The position numbers were made by a program, and so were the translations under genes. 64,000 bases of DNA from Escherichia coli. Lineage in GTDB: Bacteria > Pseudomonadota > Gammaproteobacteria > Enterobacterales > Enterobacteriaceae. Location of the stretch: the NCBI RefSeq assembly GCF_003018255.1, contig NZ_CP027440.1. One strand, written 5' to 3'. Positions 1,861 through 48,278 of this stretch are shown piece by piece; the stretch's first letter is position 1, and every line of letters starts with the position of its first letter. The notes under the pieces are model-generated. The model ran no database searches, was not told the DNA's origin, and saw only the letters and a list, made by a program, of their open reading frames with translations.

Positions 1861-2214
1861 CGCACCGTGCTTTCATCCATCGCGCGCAAAAATCATTCTC
1901 TAAGTAAATGAATGGATTGCATGCGTTTCACTCAATCGTACTTTAATTGACCAATCCCGTTTATTAACTTTCTGTATCACTTTTTCTTATAAAGAATCAT
2001 GTAAAACCGCTCGCCAAGACCGCACCAATCGGGTAATCTCGAACTCGTTTTGCCTCGGCGGTAGATTATCCTCACAGCATATAATTTTGTGCGTTAGTCC
2101 ACAGATTTGGCCTTAAGGAATTGTTTCAACATGCCCAGGTAATTAGTCTCGTGTCGCTTGGCATTTTTTTATAACGATATTTGTCGTTAAGGACTTCAAG
2201 GGAAAACAAACAAC

Positions 2215-2781
2215 ATGGTCAAATCTCAACCGATTTTGAGATATATCTTGCGCGGGATCCCCGCGATTGCAGTAGCGGTTCTGCTTTCTGCATGTAGTGC
2301 AAATAACACCGCAAAGAATATGCATCCTGAGACACGTGCAGTGGGTAGTGAAACATCATCACTGCAAGCTTCTCAGGATGAATTTGAAAACCTGGTTCGT
2401 AATGTCGACGTAAAATCGCGAATTATGGATCAGTATGCTGACTGGAAAGGTGTACGCTATCGTCTGGGTGGCAGCACTAAAAAAGGCATCGATTGTTCTG
2501 GTTTCGTACAGCGTACATTCCGTGAGCAATTTGGCTTAGAACTTCCGCGTTCGACTTACGAACAGCAGGAAATGGGTAAATCTGTTTCCCGCAGTAATTT
2601 GCGTACGGGTGATTTAGTTCTGTTCCGTGCCGGTTCAACAGGACGCCATGTCGGTATTTATATCGGCAACAATCAGTTTGTCCATGCTTCCACCAGCAGT
2701 GGTGTTATTATTTCCAGCATGAATGAACCGTACTGGAAGAAGCGTTACAACGAAGCACGCCGGGTTCTCAGCCGCAGCTAA
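2215..2781 (+). CDS. mepS: NlpC/P60 murein DD-endopeptidase lipoprotein (Spr/MepS)
   Basis: 188 aa; lipoprotein signal (LLSAC), catalytic Cys in DCSGF, His in GRHVGIY; matches MepS length. Confidence 0.95.
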
Positions 2782-2828
2782 TAAACCGTTTGGATGCAAT
2801 CCCTTGGCTATCCTGACGAGTTAACTGA

Positions 2829-2859
2829 AAGCACTGCTTAGGCAGTGCTTTTTTGTTTT
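2829..2859 (+). terminator. rho-independent terminator of mepS
   Basis: aagcactgc / gcagtgctt stem with 4-nt loop followed by TTTTTTGTTTT. Confidence 0.75.
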
Positions 2860-2961
2860 CATTCATCAGAGAAAATGATGTTTCCGCGTCTTGATCCAGG
2901 CTATAGTCCGGTCATTGTTATCTTTTAAATGTTGTCGTAATTTCAGGAAATTAACGGAATC

Positions 2962-4518
2962 ATGTTCATACGCGCTCCCAATTCTGGACGTAAGCTCCTG
3001 CTTACCTGCATTGTTGCAGGCGTGATGATTGCGATACTGGTGAGCTGCCTTCAGTTTTTAGTGGCCTGGCATAAGCACGAAGTCAAATACGACACACTGA
3101 TTACCGACGTACAAAAGTATCTCGATACCTATTTTACCGACCTGAAATCCACTACTGACCGGCTCCAGCCGCTGACCTTAGATACCTGCCAGCAGGCTAA
3201 CCCCGAACTGACTGCCCGCGCGGCGTTTAGCATGAATGTCCGTACGTTTGTGCTGGTGAAAGATAAAAAAACATTCTGTTCATCTGCGACTGGTGAGATG
3301 GACATTCCACTAAAAGAATTGATTCCGGCGCTCGACATTAATAAAAATGTCGATATGGCGATCTTACCCGGTACGCCGATGGTGCCGAACAAACCCGCAA
3401 TCGTCATCTGGTATCGCAACCCGTTGTTGAAAAATAGTGGCGTGTTTGCCGCGCTGAATCTCAATCTGACGCCTTCTCTCTTTTATAGTTCACGGCAGGA
3501 AGATTACGATGGCGTCGCCCTCATTATTGGTAATACTGCGCTATCTACCTTTTCTTCACGTTTGATGAACGTTAATGAATTAACCGACATGCCGGTCCGT
3601 GAAACTAAAATTGCGGGCATTCCTCTGACCGTTCGGCTTTATGCAGATGACTGGACATGGAACGATGTGTGGTACGCATTTTTACTGGGTGGCATGAGTG
3701 GAACTTTCGTTGGACTTCTCTGCTATTACCTGATGAGTGTGCGTATGCGCCCAGGCAGAGAAATCATGACCGCCATCAAGCGCGAACAATTTTACGTGGT
3801 GTATCAACCGGTGGTGGATACACAAGCTTTGCGGGTAACGGGCCTGGAAGTACTGCTACGCTGGCGGCATCCAGTAGCAGGAGAAATCCCCCCGGATGCC
3901 TTCATTAACTTTGCCGAAGCGCAAAAGATGATTGTGCCACTGACTCAGCACCTGTTTGAGTTGATTGCCCGCGATGCCGCAGAATTAGAAAAAGTACTGC
4001 CGGTAGGCGTCAAATTTGGCATTAACATTGCGCCGGCCCACTTGCACAGCGAAAGCTTTAAAGCGGATATCCAGAAACTGCTCACTTCCCTGCCCGCACA
4101 CCATTTCCAGATTGTGCTGGAAATTACCGAGCGCGATATGCTGAAAGAGCGAGAAGCCACACAACTCTTCGCCTGGCTGCATTCGGTCGGCGTAGAAATT
4201 GCTATTGATGACTTCGGCACCGGGCACAGCGCGCTTATCTATCTTGAGCGTTTTACGCTCGATTATCTGAAAATTGATCGTGGATTTATCAACGCCATCG
4301 GTACGGAAACGATCACTTCACCCGTACTTGACGCGGTGCTGACGCTGGCGAAACGCCTCAATATGCTGACGGTTGCTGAAGGGGTCGAAACGCCAGAACA
4401 GGCACGATGGCTAAGCGAACGCGGCGTTAATTTCATGCAAGGCTACTGGATTAGTCGCCCGTTACCGCTGGACGATTTTGTTCGCTGGCTGAAGAAACCG
4501 TATACGCCGCAGTGGTAA
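2962..4518 (+). CDS. rtn: membrane-anchored EAL-domain c-di-GMP phosphodiesterase (Rtn/PdeN)
   Basis: 518 aa; N-terminal TM segment, CSS-type periplasmic region, EAL-like motif (EVLLRW) and downstream DDFGTG motif. Confidence 0.9.
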   Translation: MFIRAPNSGRKLLLTCIVAGVMIAILVSCLQFLVAWHKHEVKYDTLITDVQKYLDTYFTDLKSTTDRLQPLTLDTCQQANPELTARAAFSMNVRTFVLVKDKKTFCSSATGEMDIPLKELIPALDINKNVDMAILPGTPMVPNKPAIVIWYRNPLLKNSGVFAALNLNLTPSLFYSSRQEDYDGVALIIGNTALSTFSSRLMNVNELTDMPVRETKIAGIPLTVRLYADDWTWNDVWYAFLLGGMSGTFVGLLCYYLMSVRMRPGREIMTAIKREQFYVVYQPVVDTQALRVTGLEVLLRWRHPVAGEIPPDAFINFAEAQKMIVPLTQHLFELIARDAAELEKVLPVGVKFGINIAPAHLHSESFKADIQKLLTSLPAHHFQIVLEITERDMLKEREATQLFAWLHSVGVEIAIDDFGTGHSALIYLERFTLDYLKIDRGFINAIGTETITSPVLDAVLTLAKRLNMLTVAEGVETPEQARWLSERGVNFMQGYWISRPLPLDDFVRWLKKPYTPQW

Positions 4519-4599
4519 GGTGTGCTTACGTCCCTTATTATTCATAGTGAAAGCATGCCGGATTGCGGCTAATGATGAGTAAAAGGAAATCCGTTGCAG

Positions 4600-6414
4600 A
4601 TGATTGTGCGCATACTGCTGCTGTTTATCGCTCTGTTCACCTTTGGTGCGCAGGCGCAGACTATCAAGGAAAGCTATGCCTTTGCCGTACTGGGCGAACC
4701 CCGGTACGCATTTAATTTCAACCATTTTGATTATGTGAACCCCGCCGCGCCAAAAGGTGGGCAAATAACGTTGTCTGCGCTCGGCACCTTCGATAATTTC
4801 AACCGCTATGCACTGCGCGGCAATGCGGGCGCACGCACCGAGCAGCTGTACGACACGCTATTTACGACTTCCGATGACGAACCAGGCAGTTATTACCCGC
4901 TGATTGCTGAAAGCGCACGCTATGCTGACGATTATTCCTGGGTGGAGGTCGCTATTAATCCACGCGCCCGTTTTCATGATGGTTCGCCCATTACTGCCCG
5001 CGATGTAGAGTTTACTTTTCAAAAATTTATGACCGAAGGCGTGCCGCAATTTCGTCTGGTCTACAAAGGCACCACCGTCAAAGCCATTGCGCCGTTAACC
5101 GTGCGCATTGAGTTAGCGAAACCCGGCAAAGAAGATATGCTGAGCCTGTTTTCGCTGCCGGTCTTTCCAGAAAAGTACTGGAAGGATCACAAACTTAGCG
5201 ACCCGCTCGCCACGCCTCCGCTTGCCAGTGGTCCGTACCGAATTACGTCCTGGAAAATGGGGCAAAATATTGTCTATTCCCGCGTGAAAGATTACTGGGC
5301 AGCAAACTTACCGGTAAACCGTGGACGCTGGAATTTCGACACCATTCGCTACGATTATTACCTCGATGATAATGTCGCCTTTGAAGCGTTTAAAGCCGGT
5401 GCCTTTGATTTGCGTTTGGAAAACGACGCCAAAAACTGGGTCACGCGCTATACCGGTAAAAATTTCGATAAGAAATACATCATCAAAGATGAGCAAAAGA
5501 ACGAATCAGCCCAGGATACGCGCTGGCTGGCGTTTAATATCCAACGTCCGGTATTCAGCGATCGCCGGGTGCGGGAAGCAATCACTCTCGCCTTTGACTT
5601 TGAATGGATGAACAAGGCGTTGTTTTATAATGCCTGGAGTCGCACGAACAGTTATTTTCAGAATACCGAATATGCGGCCAGAAATTACCCCGACGCCGCG
5701 GAGCTGGTGCTTCTGGCACCAATGAAAAAAGATCTACCGCCAGAAGTCTTCACGCAAATCTACCAGCCGCCGGTATCCAAAGGCGATGGCTACGATCGTG
5801 ACAACCTGTTAAAAGCCGACAAACTTCTCAACGAAGCGGGCTGGGTGCTGAAGGGTCAGCAACGCGTAAATGCCACAACGGGTCAGCCGCTCAGCTTTGA
5901 GTTATTGCTACCTTCGAGCAGCAATAGTCAGTGGGTATTGCCGTTCCAGCACAGCCTGCAACGGCTGGGTATCAACATGGACATTCGCAAAGTGGATAAC
6001 TCGCAAATCACCAACCGCATGCGCAGTCGCGACTATGACATGATGCCGCGCGTATGGCGGGCGATGCCGTGGCCCAGTTCCGATTTACAGATTTCCTGGT
6101 CATCGGAATATATCAATTCCACTTATAATGCCCCCGGCGTGCAAAGCCCGGTTATCGACTCGCTGATCAACCAAATTATTGCCGCGCAGGGAAATAAAGA
6201 AAAATTACTGCCGTTGGGGCGAGCACTGGATCGCGTATTAACGTGGAATTATTACATGCTGCCAATGTGGTACATGGCGGAAGACCGTCTCGCCTGGTGG
6301 GATAAATTCTCCCAACCCGCTGTACGCCCTGTTTACAGCCTGGGTATTGATACCTGGTGGTATGACGTTAATAAAGCGACGAAACTGCCGTCAGCCAGAC
6401 AACAGGGAGAGTAG
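4600..6414 (+). CDS. yejA: periplasmic substrate-binding protein of peptide/microcin C ABC importer (SBP family 5)
   Basis: ORF track 4594-6414; ATG at 4600 gives 604 aa as in YejA; signal peptide then large SBP; first gene of yejABEF. Confidence 0.9.
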   Translation: MIVRILLLFIALFTFGAQAQTIKESYAFAVLGEPRYAFNFNHFDYVNPAAPKGGQITLSALGTFDNFNRYALRGNAGARTEQLYDTLFTTSDDEPGSYYPLIAESARYADDYSWVEVAINPRARFHDGSPITARDVEFTFQKFMTEGVPQFRLVYKGTTVKAIAPLTVRIELAKPGKEDMLSLFSLPVFPEKYWKDHKLSDPLATPPLASGPYRITSWKMGQNIVYSRVKDYWAANLPVNRGRWNFDTIRYDYYLDDNVAFEAFKAGAFDLRLENDAKNWVTRYTGKNFDKKYIIKDEQKNESAQDTRWLAFNIQRPVFSDRRVREAITLAFDFEWMNKALFYNAWSRTNSYFQNTEYAARNYPDAAELVLLAPMKKDLPPEVFTQIYQPPVSKGDGYDRDNLLKADKLLNEAGWVLKGQQRVNATTGQPLSFELLLPSSSNSQWVLPFQHSLQRLGINMDIRKVDNSQITNRMRSRDYDMMPRVWRAMPWPSSDLQISWSSEYINSTYNAPGVQSPVIDSLINQIIAAQGNKEKLLPLGRALDRVLTWNYYMLPMWYMAEDRLAWWDKFSQPAVRPVYSLGIDTWWYDVNKATKLPSARQQGE

Positions 6415-7509
6415 ATGGGCGCTTATCTGATTCGCCGTCTGTTGCTGGTGATCCCAACGTTATGGGCGATTATCACTATCAACTTTTTCATCGTGCAAAT
6501 TGCGCCTGGCGGTCCGGTCGACCAGGCCATCGCCGCCATTGAGTTTGGTAATACTGGTGTATTACCCGGTGCAGGCGGTGAAGGTGTTCGCGCCAGCCAT
6601 GCACAAACGGGCGTCGGTAATATCAGCGACAGTAATTACCGTGGCGGACGCGGATTGGATCCAGAAGTGATCGCCGAGATCACTCATCGCTACGGTTTCG
6701 ATAAGCCGATCCACGAACGTTACTTCAAAATGCTCTGGGACTACATCCGTTTTGATTTTGGCGACAGCCTTTTTCGCAGCGCCTCGGTGCTGACGCTGAT
6801 TAAAGACAGTCTGCCGGTCTCCATCACCCTCGGATTGTGGAGCACGCTGATTATCTATCTGGTGTCGATTCCGTTAGGCATTCGCAAAGCTGTTTATAAT
6901 GGGAGCCGTTTTGACGTCTGGAGTAGTGCATTTATCATCATCGGCTACGCCATTCCGGCCTTTTTGTTTGCCATCCTGCTGATTGTCTTCTTCGCGGGCG
7001 GCAGCTATTTCGACCTGTTCCCTCTGCGCGGCCTGGTTTCCGCTAACTTTGATTCGCTGCCGTGGTATCAGAAAATCACCGATTATCTGTGGCATATCAC
7101 GCTGCCGGTGCTGGCGACAGTGATTGGCGGCTTTGCGGCTCTGACCATGCTGACAAAAAACTCATTCCTTGATGAAGTGCGTAAGCAATACGTGGTGACG
7201 GCACGTGCGAAAGGGGTAAGTGAAAAAAATATTCTCTGGAAACATGTGTTCCGCAACGCCATGCTGCTGGTGATTGCCGGTTTTCCGGCGACGTTTATCA
7301 GCATGTTTTTTACCGGCTCGCTGCTGATTGAGGTGATGTTTTCACTCAATGGTCTTGGCTTACTGGGCTACGAAGCGACCGTCTCGCGCGATTATCCTGT
7401 AATGTTTGGTACCTTGTATATTTTCACCCTGATTGGCCTGCTGCTGAATATTGTCAGTGATATCAGCTATACGCTGGTCGATCCGCGTATAGATTTTGAG
7501 GGACGTTAA
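6415..7509 (+). CDS. yejB: ABC importer permease
   Basis: 364 aa polytopic membrane protein; start adjacent to yejA stop; OppB-like. Confidence 0.9.
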
Positions 7510-8534
7510 TGTCGCGACTCAGCCCCGTCAATCAGGCCCGTTGGGCGCGTTTTCGTCATAACCGTCGCGGCTACTGGTCGTTATGGATTTTCCTCGTCTT
7601 GTTTGGTTTGAGTTTGTGTTCTGAACTTATCGCCAACGATAAACCGTTGCTGGTGCGTTATGACGGCAGTTGGTATTTCCCGTTGTTGAAAAACTACAGC
7701 GAAAGCGATTTTGGCGGCCCGCTGGCAAGTCAGGCTGATTATCAGGACCCGTGGCTGAAACAACGGCTGGAAAATAACGGCTGGGTACTGTGGGCACCGA
7801 TTCGCTTTGGTGCTACCAGTATCAACTTTGCTACCGATAAGCCCTTCCCTTCTCCACCCTCCCGGCAAAACTGGCTGGGAACGGATGCCAATGGCGGCGA
7901 TGTGCTGGCGCGCATTCTCTATGGCACGCGGATCTCGGTTCTGTTTGGCCTGATGCTGACTCTCTGTTCCAGCGTGATGGGCGTGCTGGCGGGGGCGCTA
8001 CAAGGCTATTACGGCGGTAAAGTCGATCTCTGGGGGCAACGCTTTATTGAAGTATGGTCAGGGATGCCGACGCTGTTTTTGATTATTTTACTTTCCAGCG
8101 TCGTACAGCCTAACTTCTGGTGGCTGCTGGCAATTACCGTCTTGTTTGGCTGGATGAGTCTGGTCGGCGTGGTGCGGGCGGAGTTTTTACGTACCCGTAA
8201 TTTCGACTACATCCGCGCGGCGCAGGCGCTTGGCGTCAGCGATCGCAGTATCATCCTGCGTCATATGTTGCCAAATGCCATGGTCGCTACCCTCACCTTT
8301 TTACCGTTTATTTTATGTAGTTCGATAACCACCCTGACCTCACTCGATTTCCTCGGCTTCGGTCTGCCGCTCGGTTCACCGTCACTCGGCGAACTGCTGT
8401 TACAAGGGAAAAATAACCTTCAGGCCCCGTGGCTTGGGATCACCGCCTTCTTGTCGGTGGCGATATTGTTGTCTTTGCTGATCTTTATTGGTGAAGCCGT
8501 CCGCGACGCATTTGATCCTAATAAGGCGGTGTAG
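7509..8534 (+). CDS. yejE: ABC importer permease
   Basis: 341 aa polytopic membrane protein; start overlaps yejB stop; OppC-like. Confidence 0.9.
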   Translation: MSRLSPVNQARWARFRHNRRGYWSLWIFLVLFGLSLCSELIANDKPLLVRYDGSWYFPLLKNYSESDFGGPLASQADYQDPWLKQRLENNGWVLWAPIRFGATSINFATDKPFPSPPSRQNWLGTDANGGDVLARILYGTRISVLFGLMLTLCSSVMGVLAGALQGYYGGKVDLWGQRFIEVWSGMPTLFLIILLSSVVQPNFWWLLAITVLFGWMSLVGVVRAEFLRTRNFDYIRAAQALGVSDRSIILRHMLPNAMVATLTFLPFILCSSITTLTSLDFLGFGLPLGSPSLGELLLQGKNNLQAPWLGITAFLSVAILLSLLIFIGEAVRDAFDPNKAV

Positions 8535-8535
8535 C

Positions 8536-10125
8536 ATGACGCAAACTCTGTTAGCGATTGAAAATTTGTCGGTGGGTTTTCGCCATCAGCAAACCGTACG
8601 CACAGTAGTCAATGATGTTTCACTTCAGATTGAGGCTGGCGAAACGCTGGCGCTGGTGGGTGAGTCAGGTTCAGGCAAAAGCGTTACCGCGCTGTCAATT
8701 TTACGCCTGCTCCCTTCCCCGCCGGTTGAATATCTCTCCGGCGATATTCGTTTTCATGGCGAATCGCTGCTTCATGCCAGCGATCAAACGTTGCGCGGTG
8801 TACGCGGTAATAAGATCGCCATGATTTTTCAGGAGCCGATGGTGTCGTTAAATCCATTACATACCCTGGAAAAACAGCTTTATGAAGTACTTTCACTCCA
8901 CCGCGGGATGCGTCGGGAAGCGGCTCGTGGCGAAATTCTTAACTGCCTTGATCGCGTCGGTATCCGCCAGGCGGCAAAACGGCTGACAGATTATCCGCAT
9001 CAGCTCTCCGGCGGCGAACGCCAGCGGGTGATGATTGCGATGGCGCTGTTAACGCGACCGGAATTATTAATTGCCGATGAACCAACCACCGCGCTGGACG
9101 TCTCTGTCCAGGCGCAGATTTTACAGCTGTTGCGCGAACTGCAAGGCGAGCTGAATATGGGTATGCTGTTTATTACTCATAACCTCAGCATTGTTAGAAA
9201 ACTGGCCCACCGCGTGGCGGTAATGCAAAACGGTCGCTGTGTCGAGCAAAATAACGCCGCTACGCTATTTGCCTCACCCACTCATCCTTACACACAAAAG
9301 CTACTCAACAGTGAACCGTCAGGCGACCCGGTCCCATTGCCAGAACCTGCCTCAACGTTGCTGGATGTTGAACAGCTTCAGGTTGCCTTCCCCATTCGCA
9401 AAGGGATTTTGAAGCGCATTGTGGATCATAATGTGGTGGTGAAAAACATCAGTTTTACGCTACGAGCGGGTGAAACACTGGGTTTAGTGGGCGAGTCTGG
9501 TTCCGGGAAAAGCACGACGGGACTGGCGCTGCTGCGACTGATTAACTCTCAGGGCAGCATCGTCTTTGACGGTAAGCCACTGCAAAATTTAAATCGCCGC
9601 CAGCTGTTACCTATTCGTCATCGCATTCAGGTGGTATTTCAGGATCCAAACTCCTCGCTCAACCCACGACTCAACGTTTTGCAGATTATTGAGGAAGGCT
9701 TACGGGTTCACCAGCCGACGCTTTCTGCCGCGCAACGCGAACAACAAGTGATAGCCGTGATGCATGAAGTGGGATTAGATCCTGAAACACGCCACCGTTA
9801 TCCGGCGGAGTTCTCTGGTGGTCAGCGGCAACGTATTGCGATTGCCAGGGCGTTAATTCTTAAGCCCTCGCTGATCATTCTTGATGAACCAACATCATCA
9901 CTCGACAAAACGGTGCAGGCGCAAATATTGACGCTATTGAAATCATTGCAACAAAAGCATCAACTGGCCTATTTGTTTATCAGCCACGATTTGCACGTTG
10001 TCCGCGCGTTATGTCATCAGGTTATCGTACTGCGACAAGGGGAAGTAGTGGAACAAGGACCGTGCGCGCGCGTGTTTGCCGCACCGCAGCAGGAGTATAC
10101 GCGTCAGCTACTGGCGTTGAGCTGA
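8536..10125 (+). CDS. yejF: ABC importer ATPase with two fused nucleotide-binding domains
   Basis: ORF track 8488-10125; ATG at 8536 ([11 protein letters not shown]) gives 529 aa; two Walker A motifs (GESGSGKS twice) and two LSGG signature motifs. Confidence 0.9.
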
Positions 10126-10128
10126 CGC

Positions 10129-10473
10129 TTAAAAAGGATTGTAGTTTGAAAAGGGTTCGGCAATTGCCACACCAAAATTTTTCAATCGGCATGTTGCAGC
10201 AAATTCGTCCTGGCGATTTACAAACAGGCACGGCTCACCTTCACACTCCAGCACCGAACATGGAACTTCGATGTCGCTTAACGCCTGGCTTAGTTTGTAC
10301 ATCACCGACCATGCATTATCACCATCCGGGCTAAGCAATTTAAGCGCCACCAGGCTGTTGTCACCGCACGGTCCATTTTGCGGAATCGGTTCAACCTTCG
10401 AACCTGCGAAACCAGCAGACCAGCGATAGTTCTGCGGCAGTCGATGGACGATTGAGAGTTGTAATGAAGTCAC
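10129..10473 (-). CDS. yejG: conserved protein of unknown function YejG
   Basis: 114 aa ORF, length and sequence match YejG. Confidence 0.85.
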
Positions 10474-10806
10474 TTATTTTCCCCGGAAGTACATTTTACT
10501 TCACAATTTGTTTACATCAATTTTAACACATCATCAACAATCCGTCTTTATACAGATCGTAAAGATTGATGCCTCGCCTGCGTGGCCTCTATGGCTCTGA
10601 TTTAAATAATATCTGCGGGCGTGGTCACGTTTGCGGGGCTATATGTACCCGTTTCTGCGATCTAACTCAACCTTTTTAACTACAATGATGTGACTTTTTA
10701 CATAAATTGATTTTACATAAAATAAACATATATCGGGGGAATGATAGATTTGTGGTTGACATGCATCAACAAAGGAAGCCTTTTAGCTTCCTCGTTGTGC
10801 AATAGA

Positions 10807-32958: not shown

Positions 32959-33447
32959 ATGAAGACCATTCTACCTGCAGTATTGTTTGCCGCTTTCGCC
33001 ACCACTTCCGCCTGGGCGGCAGAAAGCGTCCAGCCACTGGAAAAAATCGCACCTTATCCACAAGCTGAAAAAGGCATGAAGCGCCAGGTGATTCAGTTAA
33101 CCCCGCAAGAAGATGAATCTACCCTGAAAGTAGAACTGTTAATCGGCCAGACGCTGGAAGTCGATTGCAATTTGCATCGTCTCGGCGGGAAGCTGGAAAG
33201 CAAAACGCTGGAAGGCTGGGGCTATGATTATTATGTCTTTGATAAAGTCAGTTCCCCGGTTTCGACGATGATGGCCTGCCCGGATGGCAAGAAAGAGAAG
33301 AAATTTGTCACCGCGTATCTGGGCGATGCCGGAATGCTGCGTTATAACAGCAAGCTGCCGATCGTGGTGTATACGCCAGACAATGTAGATGTGAAGTACC
33401 GCGTCTGGAAGGCGGAAGAGAAAATTGACAACGCGGTAGTTCGCTAA
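32959..33447 (+). CDS. eco: ecotin, periplasmic serine protease inhibitor
   Basis: ORF track 32938-33447; ATG at 32959 ([20 protein letters not shown]) gives 162 aa. Confidence 0.95.
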
Positions 33448-33461
33448 ACTGCTGTGAAGTG

Positions 33462-33592
33462 CTGCAACCGCCAGGTCGGATAAGGCGGTTACGCCGCATC
33501 CGACATCTAACGCCCGAGCCGGTTGCCTGATGCGACGCTGACGCGTCTTATCTGCATACGCCACATCCGGCATACCATGCCGGATGTGGCAC
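33462..33592. repeat. cluster of REP palindromes (BIME-like) between convergent eco and mqo
   Basis: gtcggataaggcg...cgccgcatccgac; tgcctgatgcgacgctgacgcgtcttatc; ccacatccggcat...atgccggatgtgg. Confidence 0.7.
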
Positions 33593-35460: not shown

Positions 35461-37104
35461 TTATGCCGTCCGGGCAACGGCATCACGCGAAGCAGCATCG
35501 CGCTCTTCGCCTGTCAGCTCGCTAAGTTGCCCGTTGCGCATTTCCAGCAGGCGGTCGGCGTGGATAAAGTAATGATCATCATGACTGATGGCGAAAATAG
35601 TTTTACCCATCTCCTGCATCAGCGGCAGCAGCACCTGATAAAACTCACGACGGAAGTGTGGATCCTGATCCGCCGCCCATTCATCCAGCAGGATAATATC
35701 GCGTTCTTCTGCCAGCGCCAGCAACAGCGCCACGCGTTTTTTCTGCCCTTTTGATAACTTCAGGTTAACAATACGCCCGTTGCTTAACTCAAGCTTATGA
35801 GCCATTTTCAGCTGCGCCAGCCACTTCTCAACCAGTTGCGGGTTAGCGGGTTGCCCCTCCGGCCCCAGCAGTTGATCAAACAGCCAGACATCGGTAAACA
35901 CTGCCGAAAACAGTTTTCGATAATCTTCCGGTTGTTCGCCGCTGACAGGTTTGCCATCCAGCAAGATTTCGCCATTTTGTGGCTGGTACAAGCCCGTCAG
36001 CAACATCGCCAGCGTCGATTTTCCACTACCGTTGCCACCAATCAGAAACAGCAGCTCGCCACGTTTGATGGTGAGGTTAATTGGCCCAACGGAAAACGCG
36101 TTATCCTGATAGCTAAACGTCACGTTACGCAGCTCCAGCGTTTGCCAGTTGGGAAAAGCCTGCGGGCGCGGAAACTCTGCTTTGAAAGGCGCGAGCGCGA
36201 ATTTGTTCAGCTTGTTAAACGCCACCTGCGCCGTCAGCAGCGTCGGCAATGCGCCAACCGCCGAAAGCAGCGGCGTACGCAGGAATAACAGCGTCAACGA
36301 ATAGGTCGCAGCAACGTTGGTATCAGCCCAACCGAGACTGTTCGCCATCCAGAACACCAGGCCGATAGCGCCCAGCATCATGATGTTTGACCAGTTCACG
36401 GCACTAAGATGGAAGGTGTCTGCGCGAATAATATGATGGCGATACTCTTGCGCATCAGGAATGTAGAGGTTGTTAAACACATACTCGGCGCGTTCACGGT
36501 TCAGAGTCAGCTCTTTGCGCCCTTCGAGTACAGTTTGAAAATCCGTGTACAGCTTATCTTCGGTTTCACGCAGGGTCGCCATATGTTTGTACACCCGCGC
36601 CACCAGCACAAAACCGCCCCAGATGGTGACTGCCATCCAGATAGCCGTTACCAGCAACATTTTGCCCGACAGCATCCACAAATACGCCGCTGAACCGATA
36701 GTGAGAATGATCCCCTGCACCAGTTCCGGCAGACGCACAAAAGCAATGGTGATATTGCGCACATCGCTGGTTAATCCCGCCAGCAACGAGGCGCTACCGA
36801 GTTGTTCAATGCGCTCGACGTGAGTATCGAGAATCCGCTTGATAAATTCACTACGCAGTCGGTAAACGAAGTGATGCCCCAAAGTGGTGAGCGCCAGTTG
36901 CGATCCGAGAGTGACGGCCATCAACAGCAGCAATAACCCCAGAAACTCCGGCAATACCAGCAGACTGGTATCCGCCGTTTCGATAAGGCGCTGATTGATA
37001 AAAGCAATTAAGCCAATGCCTAATGCCGCACTGGCGAGGCTTAGCGCCATCACACTGATAAATGGCCAGCGATACTGCCGCCAGACAAGTACAAGAAGTT
37101 CCAT
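35461..37104 (-). CDS. yojI: ABC exporter, fused permease/ATPase (microcin J25 efflux)
   Basis: 547 aa; N-terminal TM domain; Walker [10 protein letters not shown] and [12 protein letters not shown] signature. Confidence 0.9.
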
Positions 37105-37179
37105 GCAGAAAACCCGGACAATGAATTACAGCCCGCAGTTTAAACATCTTCGCGCGCACAGCAATAATAATTCTTATTT

Positions 37180-40134: not shown

Positions 40135-41280
<1,146 letters not shown>

Positions 41281-41566: not shown

Positions 41567-41599
41567 ACAAAACCTTCACTCGCAACTAGAATATCTTCC

Positions 41600-41692
41600 G
41601 CTATCATCATTAACTTTATTTATTACCGTCATTCATTTCTGAATGTCTGTTTACCCCTATTTCAACCGGATGCCTCGCATCCGGTTTTTTTT
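41600..41692 (+). ncRNA. micF: MicF antisense sRNA (represses ompF)
   Basis: GCTATCATCATTAACTTTATTTATTACCGTCATTCATTTCTGAATGTCTGTTTACCCCTATTTCAACCGGATGCCTCGCATCCGGTTTTTTTT; divergent from ompC; ends in hairpin plus U-tract. Confidence 0.9.
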
Positions 41693-45346: not shown

Positions 45347-45428
45347 CCTGTAGGCCAGATAAGACGCGTCAGTGTCTTATCTGGCATTTGCACGGATTGC
45401 CGGATGCGGCGTAAACGCCTTATCCGTC
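45347..45428. repeat. REP elements between convergent rcsB and rcsC
   Basis: ggccagataagacgcgtcagtgtcttatctggc and gccggatgcggcgtaaacgccttatccg palindromes. Confidence 0.7.
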
Positions 45429-48278
45429 CTACGATTCCCGCGATTTCCTGACCCTCTCGGCATATACCGTCAGCGTCTGTTTTATCACATCCAGCGTTAC
45501 CGGCTTCGACAGGCAGCTGTCCATACCGGACTCCAGACACCGCTGCTTCTCTTCAGCCAACGCATTAGCAGTTACTCCGATTACCGGCAACGTCAGTCCC
45601 AACTGACGAATGCGTTGCGTCAAGCGGTAACCATCCATATTTGGCATGTTGACGTCGCTAAGCACGATATCAATATGATTCTTGCTAAGTACATTAAGCG
45701 CATCGACGCCATCATTCGCGGTTTTACATTGATAGCCCAACGATCCCAACTGATCTGCCAGCAGACGCCGGTTAATCGGATGATCATCCACGACCAGAAT
45801 CATCATATCGTCATTATCGCTGACCGCTTTGTCCGTTAACGGCAGAGCGTTAGCAGGATCGTCGCTCTCCATCTCGATCAAATAAATACGCGCCAACAAT
45901 GCCGGTAGCTCATGCGGGGCAGCCACACTGTGTACCCACTCTCCTGGCGCTTTCTCCAGCGGAATACCAATATGGCGACGACAGAAGGTCACAACCGCTC
46001 TACCCTGCCATTTTTTGCTCACTACCTCGTCAGTGATTAACACATCTTCGGGAGTCGGTTCCTGCCCTTCGTATGTTGTAACGACGATGCCGCTGCGCTG
46101 CAAACTGGTTTCCAGGAACTGACAGAGCGACGCATTGCGGACCGCCAGCCAGCAACGTTTACCACTCAACCCTTCCACGCCTTTTTTCTGCGGGTACTGA
46201 GCGCCGTACAACGGAATACGCACGGTAAACTGGCTGCCCATTCCCGGTTCTGAATCTACCGAGATGTCGCCGTCCATCATGCTGATCAGTTTTTCACAAA
46301 TCGCCAGACCCAGACCGGTCCCCTGGAAGTTACGCTGTACGCCCGTTCCGACCTGGAAGAAGGGATCAAACAAGCGCACCACTTCTTTCGCCGGAATCCC
46401 TACGCCGGTATCGCGAACACGGATAGAGAGATAATCGCCATCAGCGCGAACATGCAGAACTATACAGCCGGTATCGGTGAATTTTATGGCGTTACTCAAC
46501 AGGTTGGAGATGACCTGCTGTAAACGCATCGGGTCGCCATTTAAGGCCACTGGCACATCCGGTTCAATAAAGCAGTACAAGCCTAGCTGCTTGCGTACCA
46601 CCAGCGGTAAATAGTTGGCGGTGATGTGGTTCATCACTTCACGCGGTGAAAACTCACGCGGTTCGATCTTCAACTGTTCCGATTCAATCTTCGAGAAGTC
46701 GAGAATATCGCTGATAATTTTCAACAACAGGCTGGAAGAGTTGTTCATTGCCGTCACCAGACGATCGACGCCTTTCGGTAACTCTTTGGTTTGCAACAGA
46801 TCCAGGTTACCGATAATGCCATACAGCGGCGTTCGCAGCTCATGACTGACGGTGGCAAGGAACATCGATTTTGACTGGCTCGCCTGTTCCGCTGCTTGTG
46901 CCATCTCCTGCAACGACTCTTCCATCTTCACGCGCGAAGAAACATCCACCAGCACACAAATGGCCACGTTTTCATTACGATAGCGCGAATGGACGAAGCT
47001 GATTTGCAGGTTGGTATTGTTGCTGGTCAGGACATCAACAAAATTGACCTGCTGCCCACAGATAATTTGTGTCAGCCGTTGGCGGTCCTCATGCGTAAGC
47101 ATATTGAGATAGGTATGCGCCAGTTCGTTACTTAAAATATTGACGCCATCAGCGGTACGCAAAATGCAGATACCCACTGGCGCGGAGGCGACAATCTTGC
47201 GATTAAACTGCTCATGTTCTTCCAGTCGCAGGGCGTCGCTTTCCGCCGGAATGAAAATACGCCGCTCGTACATCCGCGCGAGAGTAAACAATGCAGCTCC
47301 GGCAAGCACATTCAGCAAAATTGCGTTAAGGATCAACATGCGAATGCGTTCCAGCACCTTATCAACCGGCACCGAATACACGATGCTTAGCGATGAGGGT
47401 GGCAGATTTTTCTTCAGCACCAGCTCCCGGAACCCTTCCGTATAGCCAAACCAGGAGCGTTCCTGCATCCAGCGAGGATCGCCCTTAATTTTGCTTTCTG
47501 GTCCGGTAAGCGAAATCAGGGTATGACCATTTTCATCAAGAATGGTAACCCCCATCGGCAACGTACCAGGTAAGAAAAAGTTCTCCATCCGGATGGTCTG
47601 CTCGACACCCAAAAGCGCCTGCAACCGGTTCGCCAGATAAACTGGCGTCAAGGCGTAAAAATACCCGACGCCAGGGCGCGGACCTTCGCTGATCCAGTAG
47701 AGGTTACTGCCACTATCATCTTGTGGTGCATTTCGATATTTATTAATGCGTTCATGCAAAGCTTTTAACGCGGTATCGCGTTCCACTGGCATATCACGCA
47801 GACCGAAATTGGCCATGCAGAGGTTATCGCTGCCGATTAAAAATACCCGGTTGAGATCGTAAGCCGCAGAAAAATTATCGCGCCAGTAGCGCATAAACCA
47901 CGCCAATGACTCCAGAGAACCTCGCCAGGTGTTACTCATTGCGGAACAATCAGAGTCAGCAAATAGCGGTTCAAACGCAGGCACATCCGTCTGCGTTTCT
48001 CGTCCACGCGGGGAAAGCACACCGTTTTCTGCCGATAAGCGATTTTCAGCTATGTACTTCAGCTCTTTCATCACATCAGAGGTGCGTTGAATAAAGCGCT
48101 GAGCCTGATCGGAACTCAGATTAAATTCCTGACGAATTTCCGATTCTCGCTGATGTAACGCATTAACGATGTAAAAAACGGATGAAAAAGCAATCAACAG
48201 CCAGAGCACTAACGCCAATGCTCTGAACATGTAGCGCGAGGCTTTCAGGGTTGTACGAAAAGAAGCAAGGTATTTCAA
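45429..48278 (-). CDS. rcsC: hybrid sensor kinase RcsC
   Basis: 949 aa; TM segments, H-box SHELRTP, ATPase domain, C-terminal receiver domain. Confidence 0.95.
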   Translation of the reverse strand: MKYLASFRTTLKASRYMFRALALVLWLLIAFSSVFYIVNALHQRESEIRQEFNLSSDQAQRFIQRTSDVMKELKYIAENRLSAENGVLSPRGRETQTDVPAFEPLFADSDCSAMSNTWRGSLESLAWFMRYWRDNFSAAYDLNRVFLIGSDNLCMANFGLRDMPVERDTALKALHERINKYRNAPQDDSGSNLYWISEGPRPGVGYFYALTPVYLANRLQALLGVEQTIRMENFFLPGTLPMGVTILDENGHTLISLTGPESKIKGDPRWMQERSWFGYTEGFRELVLKKNLPPSSLSIVYSVPVDKVLERIRMLILNAILLNVLAGAALFTLARMYERRIFIPAESDALRLEEHEQFNRKIVASAPVGICILRTADGVNILSNELAHTYLNMLTHEDRQRLTQIICGQQVNFVDVLTSNNTNLQISFVHSRYRNENVAICVLVDVSSRVKMEESLQEMAQAAEQASQSKSMFLATVSHELRTPLYGIIGNLDLLQTKELPKGVDRLVTAMNNSSSLLLKIISDILDFSKIESEQLKIEPREFSPREVMNHITANYLPLVVRKQLGLYCFIEPDVPVALNGDPMRLQQVISNLLSNAIKFTDTGCIVLHVRADGDYLSIRVRDTGVGIPAKEVVRLFDPFFQVGTGVQRNFQGTGLGLAICEKLISMMDGDISVDSEPGMGSQFTVRIPLYGAQYPQKKGVEGLSGKRCWLAVRNASLCQFLETSLQRSGIVVTTYEGQEPTPEDVLITDEVVSKKWQGRAVVTFCRRHIGIPLEKAPGEWVHSVAAPHELPALLARIYLIEMESDDPANALPLTDKAVSDNDDMMILVVDDHPINRRLLADQLGSLGYQCKTANDGVDALNVLSKNHIDIVLSDVNMPNMDGYRLTQRIRQLGLTLPVIGVTANALAEEKQRCLESGMDSCLSKPVTLDVIKQTLTVYAERVRKSRES

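Follow-up and report, generated by a model that had tools for sequence, protein, structure and literature searches.

We analysed a stretch of 64,000 nucleotides of Escherichia coli DNA (contig NZ_CP027440.1), hereafter called the window, in which an earlier note had recognized the importer operon yejABEF and the exporter gene yojI. Gene positions were taken from the open reading frames and from a genome of 100% identity annotated in RefSeq, and for both loci they agree exactly with that note. The features are as follows:

4519..4599, + strand: pdeN-yejA spacer of 81 bp, 5' of the yej operon, 100% identical to K-12
4600-6414, + strand: yejA, periplasmic cluster-C substrate-binding protein, 604 aa (PF00496, E 4.7e-65)
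4825..4827, + strand: yejA codon 76, GCG (Ala) here and CCG (Pro) in K-12, adjoining the microcin C contact residue Asn75
6415-7509, + strand: yejB, permease, 364 aa (NF011712, 793 bits, cut-off 445; PF00528)
7509-8534, + strand: yejE, permease, 341 aa (NF011596, 781 bits, cut-off 439; PF00528)
8536-10125, + strand: yejF, fused ATPase with two nucleotide-binding domains, 529 aa (NF011713, 1101 bits, cut-off 834)
8659..8682, + strand: YejF Walker A of domain 1, GESGSGKS, aa 42-49
9004..9018, + strand: YejF signature of domain 1, LSGGE, aa 157-161
9490..9513, + strand: YejF Walker A of domain 2, GESGSGKS, aa 319-326
9811..9825, + strand: YejF signature of domain 2, FSGGQ, aa 426-430
35461-37104, - strand: yojI, half-size ABC exporter (membrane domain and one ATPase domain), 547 aa (NF007813, 1053 bits, cut-off 604)
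37105..37179, - strand: alkB-yojI spacer of 75 bp, upstream of yojI, 100% identical to K-12

The identity, integrity and motifs of the genes, the conservation of their residues, their occurrence over genomes and the purifying selection on them were established directly, and since the NCBIfam scores lie far over their curated cut-offs chance is not an issue in the identification. No NCBIfam model reached its cut-off for YejA (the best was nikA with 84.6 bits against 393), so that its identity rests on Pfam, the PDB and synteny. The near-identical PDB chains 7ATR, 7Z6F and 8FSQ-S align with the window protein from residue 20 onwards, and residues 1-19 form the signal peptide, the sole hydrophobic segment of YejA in a hydrophobicity scan. 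YejB and YejE have about six hydrophobic segments each. The four genes are closely packed in a single operon between pdeN and yejG, in synteny with K-12: the yejB start directly follows the yejA stop and the yejE ATG overlaps the yejB stop (TAATG). In YejF the two Walker A and two signature motifs are accompanied by two Walker B motifs (aa 177-182 and 446-451) and by a Q-loop and an H-loop in each half, and Pfam finds two ABC_tran stretches. The earlier description of a complete Opp-like importer with a doubly fused ATPase is thereby borne out. Indeed the substrate-binding protein with its signal peptide, two distinct BPD_transp_1 permeases, two fused ATPase domains, a packed operon and the microcin C-binding residues together identify a peptide/nickel (Opp/Dpp-type) ABC importer, and specifically YejABEF.

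YejABEF belongs to the same transporter family as the glutathione importer GsiABCD and the peptide permeases OppBCDF/DppBCDF (SBP_bac_5 plus two BPD_transp_1 permeases). GsiA likewise has two fused ATPase domains, with YejF scoring 547 bits on the GsiA model against a cut-off of 1077, whereas in Opp and Dpp the two ATPases are distinct proteins. YejA also sets the system apart from these relatives, by an N-terminal extension of 35 residues and by a cavity that is much larger. Fe-S clusters have been described in some Opp/Dpp ATPases; YejF has only 4 cysteines and these are scattered. A simple scan of the pdeN-yejA spacer gave no sigma-70-like site, and in a promoter/terminator scan of positions 4300-10700 there were 9 promoter-like sites (6.8 in shuffles) and 7 terminator-like sites (8.5 in shuffles). 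As a whole the region has no more sites than shuffles, and as none of them falls in the spacer we assigned no regulatory site. An Rfam scan of the whole window placed nothing in or beside yej or yojI.

The NF007813 match of YojI spans residues 1-546 of 547, and the protein also exceeds the cut-off of the cyclic peptide exporter model TIGR01194 (367 bits, cut-off 286). PF00005 covers aa 341-477, PF00664 falls just under its cut-off (26.8 bits, cut-off 28) and a crude scan gives 5 hydrophobic segments. The ATPase motifs are a Walker A (356-363), a Walker B (470-475), an H-loop (506-509) and a variant signature, LSKGQ (450-454), which is kept in K-12, Salmonella and Citrobacter. The gene lies downstream of ada-alkB and adjoins mqo; this position, the ATPase motifs and the fusion of a transmembrane domain to one C-terminal ATPase domain mark YojI as a type IV half-size ABC exporter. 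McjD is part of the gene cluster of the MccJ25 producer, where it is the plasmid-encoded self-immunity exporter, whereas YojI is chromosomal and core; the two have in common that they are half-size ABC exporters for which export of MccJ25 has been reported. Residues 1-320 of YojI found four weak matches only in the PDB (E 0.11 or worse), none named McjD; by this search no close relative of the membrane domain has been solved, and a link to McjD was not detectable by sequence.

The window is collinear with K-12 at 2.268-2.312 Mb. The five genes all have the K-12 length, no internal stops and 97.0-98.3% DNA identity, with dN/dS between 0.011 and 0.076, the highest value being that of yejA. For K-12 YejABEF (b2177-b2180) the genes, their order, lengths, junctions and flanks match the window and the proteins are 98.0-99.7% identical; K-12 YojI (b2211) has 547 aa, is 99.3% identical and matches in locus and upstream spacer. 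Among 5,426 complete E. coli genomes the yej locus is present in 5,425 and yojI in 5,421, so that both are found in >99.9%, in keeping with their earlier description as core genes. In public data the identical YejA protein occurs on 710 contigs, marking it as an established lineage allele, and the identical YejB, YejE, YejF and YojI occur on at least 1000 contigs each.

The earlier note had asked how the alleles compare with K-12 and had called its point moot should they be the same. They are not identical, with 23 amino acid differences (12 in YejA, 1 in YejB, 1 in YejE, 5 in YejF and 4 in YojI, thus 19 in YejABEF), while the published binding residues are unchanged. These residues are of two kinds. 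Those that contact McC or fMccA are Arg51, Asn57, Gln132, Tyr137, Asp161, Thr453, Arg457, Arg469, Ser476, Asp477, Ser481, Thr490 and Tyr491 in the numbering of PMC11725936, and all 13 are identical in the window and in K-12. The contacts of the self-peptide (PMC10924461) are conserved as well (13/13), and the self-peptide LGEPRYAFNFN itself is intact; numbering offsets were checked by the identities of all 26 residues. Outside YejA the substitutions are A47T in YejB, N110D in YejE, Y240N, I343V, Q347K, I498V and T516A in YejF, and I159V, A331S, S377N and K418Q in YojI, three of these four YojI changes lying at positions variable between genera. None of them touches a Walker A, Walker B, signature, Q-loop or H-loop. 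The natural resistance changes that have been reported, a yejB frameshift and YojI I91V, R313C and A430V, are absent here.

By comparison with other genomes many of the differences from K-12 are peculiarities of K-12's own lineage. At YejA positions 17, 215, 381, 578 and 600 the window residue is common to Salmonella and the other sampled E. coli lineages, and at position 273 it is matched by Salmonella only. For A21T, P76A, A281V, A439S and A594T Salmonella sides with K-12; in our sample A21T, P76A, A281V and A594T are restricted to the few closest relatives of the window, and A439S is also found in ECO-104. As far as sequence can tell, the differences are ordinary polymorphisms, common natural variants that lie outside every known functional residue.

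Transport activities and substrates are taken here from the literature, which supports both assignments made earlier. YejABEF is the uptake route of microcin C (Novikova 2007, as cited in PMC10924461 and PMC11725936), and this role is backed by genetics and crystal structures; for K-12 both the import and the resistance that follows deletion are known. YojI together with TolC has been linked to the efflux of MccJ25 (Delgado 2005, as cited in PMC7285073 and PMC10926693). Following this work, YejA would be exported by means of its 19-residue signal peptide and capture periplasmic peptides, including the formylated heptapeptide of microcin C, before docking on the YejB/YejE membrane pair. Import would be driven by the two ATPase sites, both supplied by a single YejF chain. 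In the cell, processing would turn microcin C into a mimic of aspartyl-adenylate, which blocks aspartyl-tRNA synthetase. YojI would act separately as a half-size exporter, presumably a homodimer, that with TolC can pump out MccJ25.

We regard it as almost certain that the window carries ordinary, intact chromosomal orthologues of yejABEF and yojI, presumably functional, and that there is no functional link between the two loci. On sequence alone the strain is predicted to be sensitive to McC and to YejA-targeted conjugates, subject to outer-membrane entry, and to have a normal intrinsic efflux of MccJ25 by YojI. What is found at yejABEF and yojI is already known, and its significance goes little beyond annotation; the residue-level check is a useful negative for genome-based prediction of susceptibility.

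It is rather probable that the microcin labels describe side activities, YejABEF being chiefly a general importer of longer peptides or a system that handles or senses antimicrobial peptides, and YojI an exporter of another cell metabolite. YejA, whose cavity is very large at 8,253 cubic angstroms, binds a peptide that stems from its own N-terminus, and yej mutants of Salmonella and Brucella show greater sensitivity to antimicrobial peptides. The natural role of YojI has one report behind it, and PMC13316013 still calls its function unknown. Moreover both loci are core, and strong purifying selection acts on them in strains that are not known to meet microcins. The uptake of McC by Yej nevertheless has its genetic and structural support, and a different natural cargo for the same machine would be compatible with the presence of ordinary yejABEF and yojI orthologues.

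It is very unlikely that the alleles of this strain alter microcin susceptibility, in particular that YejA P76A changes the recognition of McC or similar peptides, perhaps because peptide antibiotics exert selection in this lineage. P76A is the only mildly unusual detail of the two loci. It adjoins Asn75 (Asn57 in the paper numbering), which forms a bond with the final residue of the McC peptide, and Salmonella YejA keeps Pro at position 76. The haplotype is rare: the 33-mer of the window at codon 76 is found in 5 of the 5,426 complete genomes and that of K-12 in 4,268, a count that resolves about 4,270 genomes and leaves about 1,150 with other synonymous variants unclassified. In DETEC-S792, the nearest relative, yejB carries a frameshift, and McC resistance is known to arise in nature by inactivation of yej. 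Still more doubtful is the idea that P76A might retune peptide or McC recognition and, together with the yejB loss of this relative, could mark a lineage selected by Trojan-horse peptide antibiotics. Against an effect of the allele, every ligand-contacting residue is unchanged, Asn57 itself has been described as highly variable across YejA homologues and a change from Pro to Ala in a loop is mild. The dN/dS of yejA (0.076) and the wide occurrence of its exact protein also speak against such an effect.

The earlier note had set importer and exporter side by side. Their co-presence about 25 kb apart stands, the measured gap from the yejF stop to yojI being 25,335 bp, but one joint system does not, as the microcins differ (McC for Yej and MccJ25 for YojI). 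We give almost no credence to the view that yejABEF and yojI form one neighbourhood of peptide-antibiotic susceptibility that is kept or regulated together, although yejABEF, bcr, yojI, ompC and micF, all related to peptide or antibiotic transport or to the envelope, lie within these 64 kb, McC crosses the outer membrane through OmpF, whose gene MicF regulates, and the order is the same in K-12. This shared order follows from the collinearity of the whole chromosome. Between the two loci, which are on opposite strands, lie about 20 unrelated genes of housekeeping operons, including bcr, rsuA, radD, rplY, yejK, yejL, lapC, narP, ccm, nap, eco and mqo. MccJ25 enters through FhuA, TonB and SbmA, and genes for these were not seen among those of the window. 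The known regulators differ too, RydC for yej and Lrp with ppGpp for yojI. A peptide-antibiotic island was accordingly rejected, given the unrelated genes between the loci, their different substrates and regulators and a proximity within chance; the genes make up no functional unit. The proximity is inherited gene order and does not exceed chance: if 10-20 microcin-related loci (our own estimate) lie on a chromosome of 4.64 Mb, one expects 0.6-2.5 pairs of them at distances of up to 30 kb. Nor does the spacing show a sign of constraint, as it shifts by 3.7 kb between strains, the gap being 29,082 bp in K-12.

The yejABEF and yojI genes are well-described core genes, standing here in their usual and already known state. 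Positions 236-40501 of the window are collinear with 2.268-2.312 Mb of K-12 MG1655 (the part of K-12 that was compared), and a 6-kb query around yej finds a match in 5,425 of the 5,426 complete E. coli genomes. Coordinates for yej were obtained by transferring the RefSeq annotation of strain JNE112863, which is 100% identical to this query, and a mechanical ORF list gives the same genes when the annotated ATG starts are taken in place of upstream TTGs. An earlier note had described a microcin C (McC) importer and a microcin J25 (MccJ25) exporter in this DNA; the ORFs and the transferred annotation show its coordinates to be exact, confirm the observation and support its interpretation.

4600-6414, + strand: yejA, substrate-binding protein
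6415-7509, + strand: yejB, permease
7509-8534, + strand: yejE, permease
8536-10125, + strand: yejF, ATPase
35461-37104, - strand: yojI, 547-aa ORF

The importer is of the peptide ABC type, with every part present and intact. YejA is a family-5 solute-binding protein (Pfam PF00496, E 4.7e-65) whose signal peptide (aa 1-19) is its sole hydrophobic segment and which aligns from residue 20 with the solved YejA structures 7ATR, 7Z6F and 8FSQ/R/S. YejB and YejE are binding-protein-dependent permeases, to which the NCBIfam models named 'microcin C ABC transporter permease' give 793 and 781 bits (cut-offs 445 and 439), and YejF reaches 1101 bits on the NCBIfam YejF model (cut-off 834). The two fused nucleotide-binding domains noted before in YejF are indeed two full ATPase domains with every motif doubled: Walker A GESGSGKS (aa 42-49 and 319-326), Q-loops (aa 97-100 and 367-370), signatures LSGGE (aa 157-161) and FSGGQ (aa 426-430), Walker B (aa 177-182 and 446-451) and H-loops (aa 213-216 and 482-485). 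The yejB ATG directly follows the yejA stop, the yejE ATG overlaps the yejB stop and the yejF ATG lies one base from the yejE stop. The half-size ABC exporter YojI is likewise intact in every part. It passes the cut-offs of NF007813 (1053 against 604 bits) and of TIGR01194, the cyclic-peptide-exporter subfamily (367 against 286 bits), and has Walker A at aa 356-363, Walker B at aa 470-475 and the H-loop at aa 506-509. Its variant signature LSKGQ (aa 450-454) is common to the Salmonella and Citrobacter orthologues and is therefore a family trait.

According to published work, E. coli becomes McC-resistant when any one of the yej genes is deleted. YejA binds the formylated heptapeptide of McC and not the nucleotide part, and removal of the peptide in the cytoplasm releases an inhibitor of aspartyl-tRNA synthetase. 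The physiological ligands of YejA are unsettled; its cavity is very large and a peptide from its own N-terminus is bound. The small RNA RydC targets yej mRNA. YojI together with TolC lowers intracellular MccJ25 and yojI expression rises with Lrp and ppGpp; a 2026 paper still lists the function of YojI as unknown, apart from the single MccJ25 report (PMC13316013).

Each of the five genes is as long as in K-12 and free of internal stops. DNA identity to K-12 is 97.0, 97.4, 98.3, 98.1 and 97.8% for yejA, yejB, yejE, yejF and yojI respectively, with 12, 1, 1, 5 and 4 amino-acid differences and dN/dS values of 0.076, 0.011, 0.019, 0.061 and 0.048, a range that indicates strong purifying selection. 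The spacers 5' of yejA (81 bp) and of yojI (75 bp) have the K-12 sequence. Alignment of the YejA binding residues with K-12, as the earlier note had proposed, showed 13 of 13 McC/fMccA contacts to be unchanged; contact residues were taken from PMC11725936 (precursor = n+18) and PMC10924461 (precursor = n+19), and with these numbering offsets 26 of 26 residues proved identical, which validates both. The same holds for all 13 contacts with the undecapeptide that derives from YejA itself, and the self-peptide LGEPRYAFNFN is intact. YojI is not identical to K-12, yet its four substitutions leave the ATPase motifs untouched, as do those of YejF. Changes reported from naturally microcin-resistant isolates (a yejB frameshift and YojI I91V, R313C and A430V) were sought in the window and all were absent.

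The sole substitution near a functional residue is YejA P76A, Ala in the window and Pro in K-12 and Salmonella. It adjoins Asn75, numbered Asn57 in PMC11725936. That residue forms a bond to the end residue of the McC peptide, and the contact position is itself described as highly variable among homologues (PMC11725936). Among 5,426 complete genomes the 33-mer around codon 76 occurs in the window form in 5, in the K-12 form in 4,268 and with the alternative Ala spelling in 0, counts that leave about 1,150 genomes with other synonymous variants unclassified. As far as the sequences go, P76A is rare and is the only loose end of the comparison.

The exact YejB, YejE, YejF and YojI sequences are each found in at least 1000 public contigs and that of YejA in 710; the yejA allele is uncommon, with at least 99% identity in 3 of 5,426 complete genomes. 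We compared yejA with K-12, 11 other E. coli genomes and three Salmonella YejA proteins. Where the window departs from K-12, Salmonella and the other sampled E. coli lineages share the window residue at five of 12 positions (17, 215, 381, 578 and 600), and at 273 Salmonella alone does so in the sampled set. Salmonella sides with K-12 and not with the window at A21T, P76A, A281V, A439S and A594T; A439S is found in ECO-104 too, and the other four are confined in this set to the few closest relatives of the window. The last 121 bp (6294-6414) exist in two versions within E. coli, the window differing at 16 positions from that of K-12, NCTC9008 and Mali-200164 and at 0-6 from the remaining sampled genomes. 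Of the four differing residues at this end, Salmonella agrees with the window at 578 and 600 but not at 594, and 601 differs in all three. By these patterns yejA looks mosaic, for example in its two-form 3' end. In DETEC-S792, the nearest non-identical relative, yejB is frameshifted (2016-3109 of its fetched locus, L003), and in APEC O2-211 (match H44) an ISVsa5 element splits yejA; both losses are natural and should confer McC resistance.

There is no sign that the co-location of yejABEF and yojI has meaning. They lie on opposite strands, concern different microcins (McC and MccJ25) and are separated by bcr, rsuA, radD, rplY, yejK, yejL, lapC, tRNA-Pro, narP, the ccm and nap operons, eco and mqo. 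If 10-20 microcin-related loci (our own estimate) were scattered randomly over the chromosome, chance alone would bring 0.6-2.5 pairs to within 30 kb of each other. We take the gene order in Salmonella to be the same. The gap is 25,335 bp here and 29,082 bp in K-12, mainly because of yejO decay and a repeat array.

18653-19347: remnants of the autotransporter gene yejO, one of 362 bp (90.7% identity to a piece of K-12 yejO) and one of 339 bp (94.1%)
33444-33552: eco-mqo spacer, with a repeat unit of about 110 bp present once

The yejO remnants hold no ORF above 121 aa and no IS5, whereas K-12 yejO has another defect, being split by IS5K. The K-12 eco-mqo spacer has five tandem copies, 89-92% alike, against one here, which explains about 0.45 kb of the difference in gap length.

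MicF represses ompF, and OmpF is the outer-membrane entry route for microcins C and B17, which adds micF to yejABEF and yojI as a third element of the window with a bearing on microcins. At E 1e-10 no NCBIfam model matches the 1539-aa ORF at 58200-62819; by position it is probably yfaS, presumably a pseudogene in K-12.

10129-10473: yejG, between yejF and bcr, converging on yejF with 3 bp between the stop codons
10807-11997, - strand: bcr, Bcr/CflA multidrug efflux pump (704 bits), two genes after yejF
14708-14733, + strand: L25 ribosomal-protein leader (Rfam), 5' of rplY
18449-18522, + strand: tRNA (Rfam) at the position of K-12 proL (tRNA-Pro)
40135-41265: ompC, 376-aa ORF (757 bits on the OmpC model), adjoining micF
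41599-41692: micF small RNA gene (Rfam, 116.8 bits)
45353-45429, - strand: naRNA4 (Rfam), beside rcsC
58200-62819, - strand: probable yfaS
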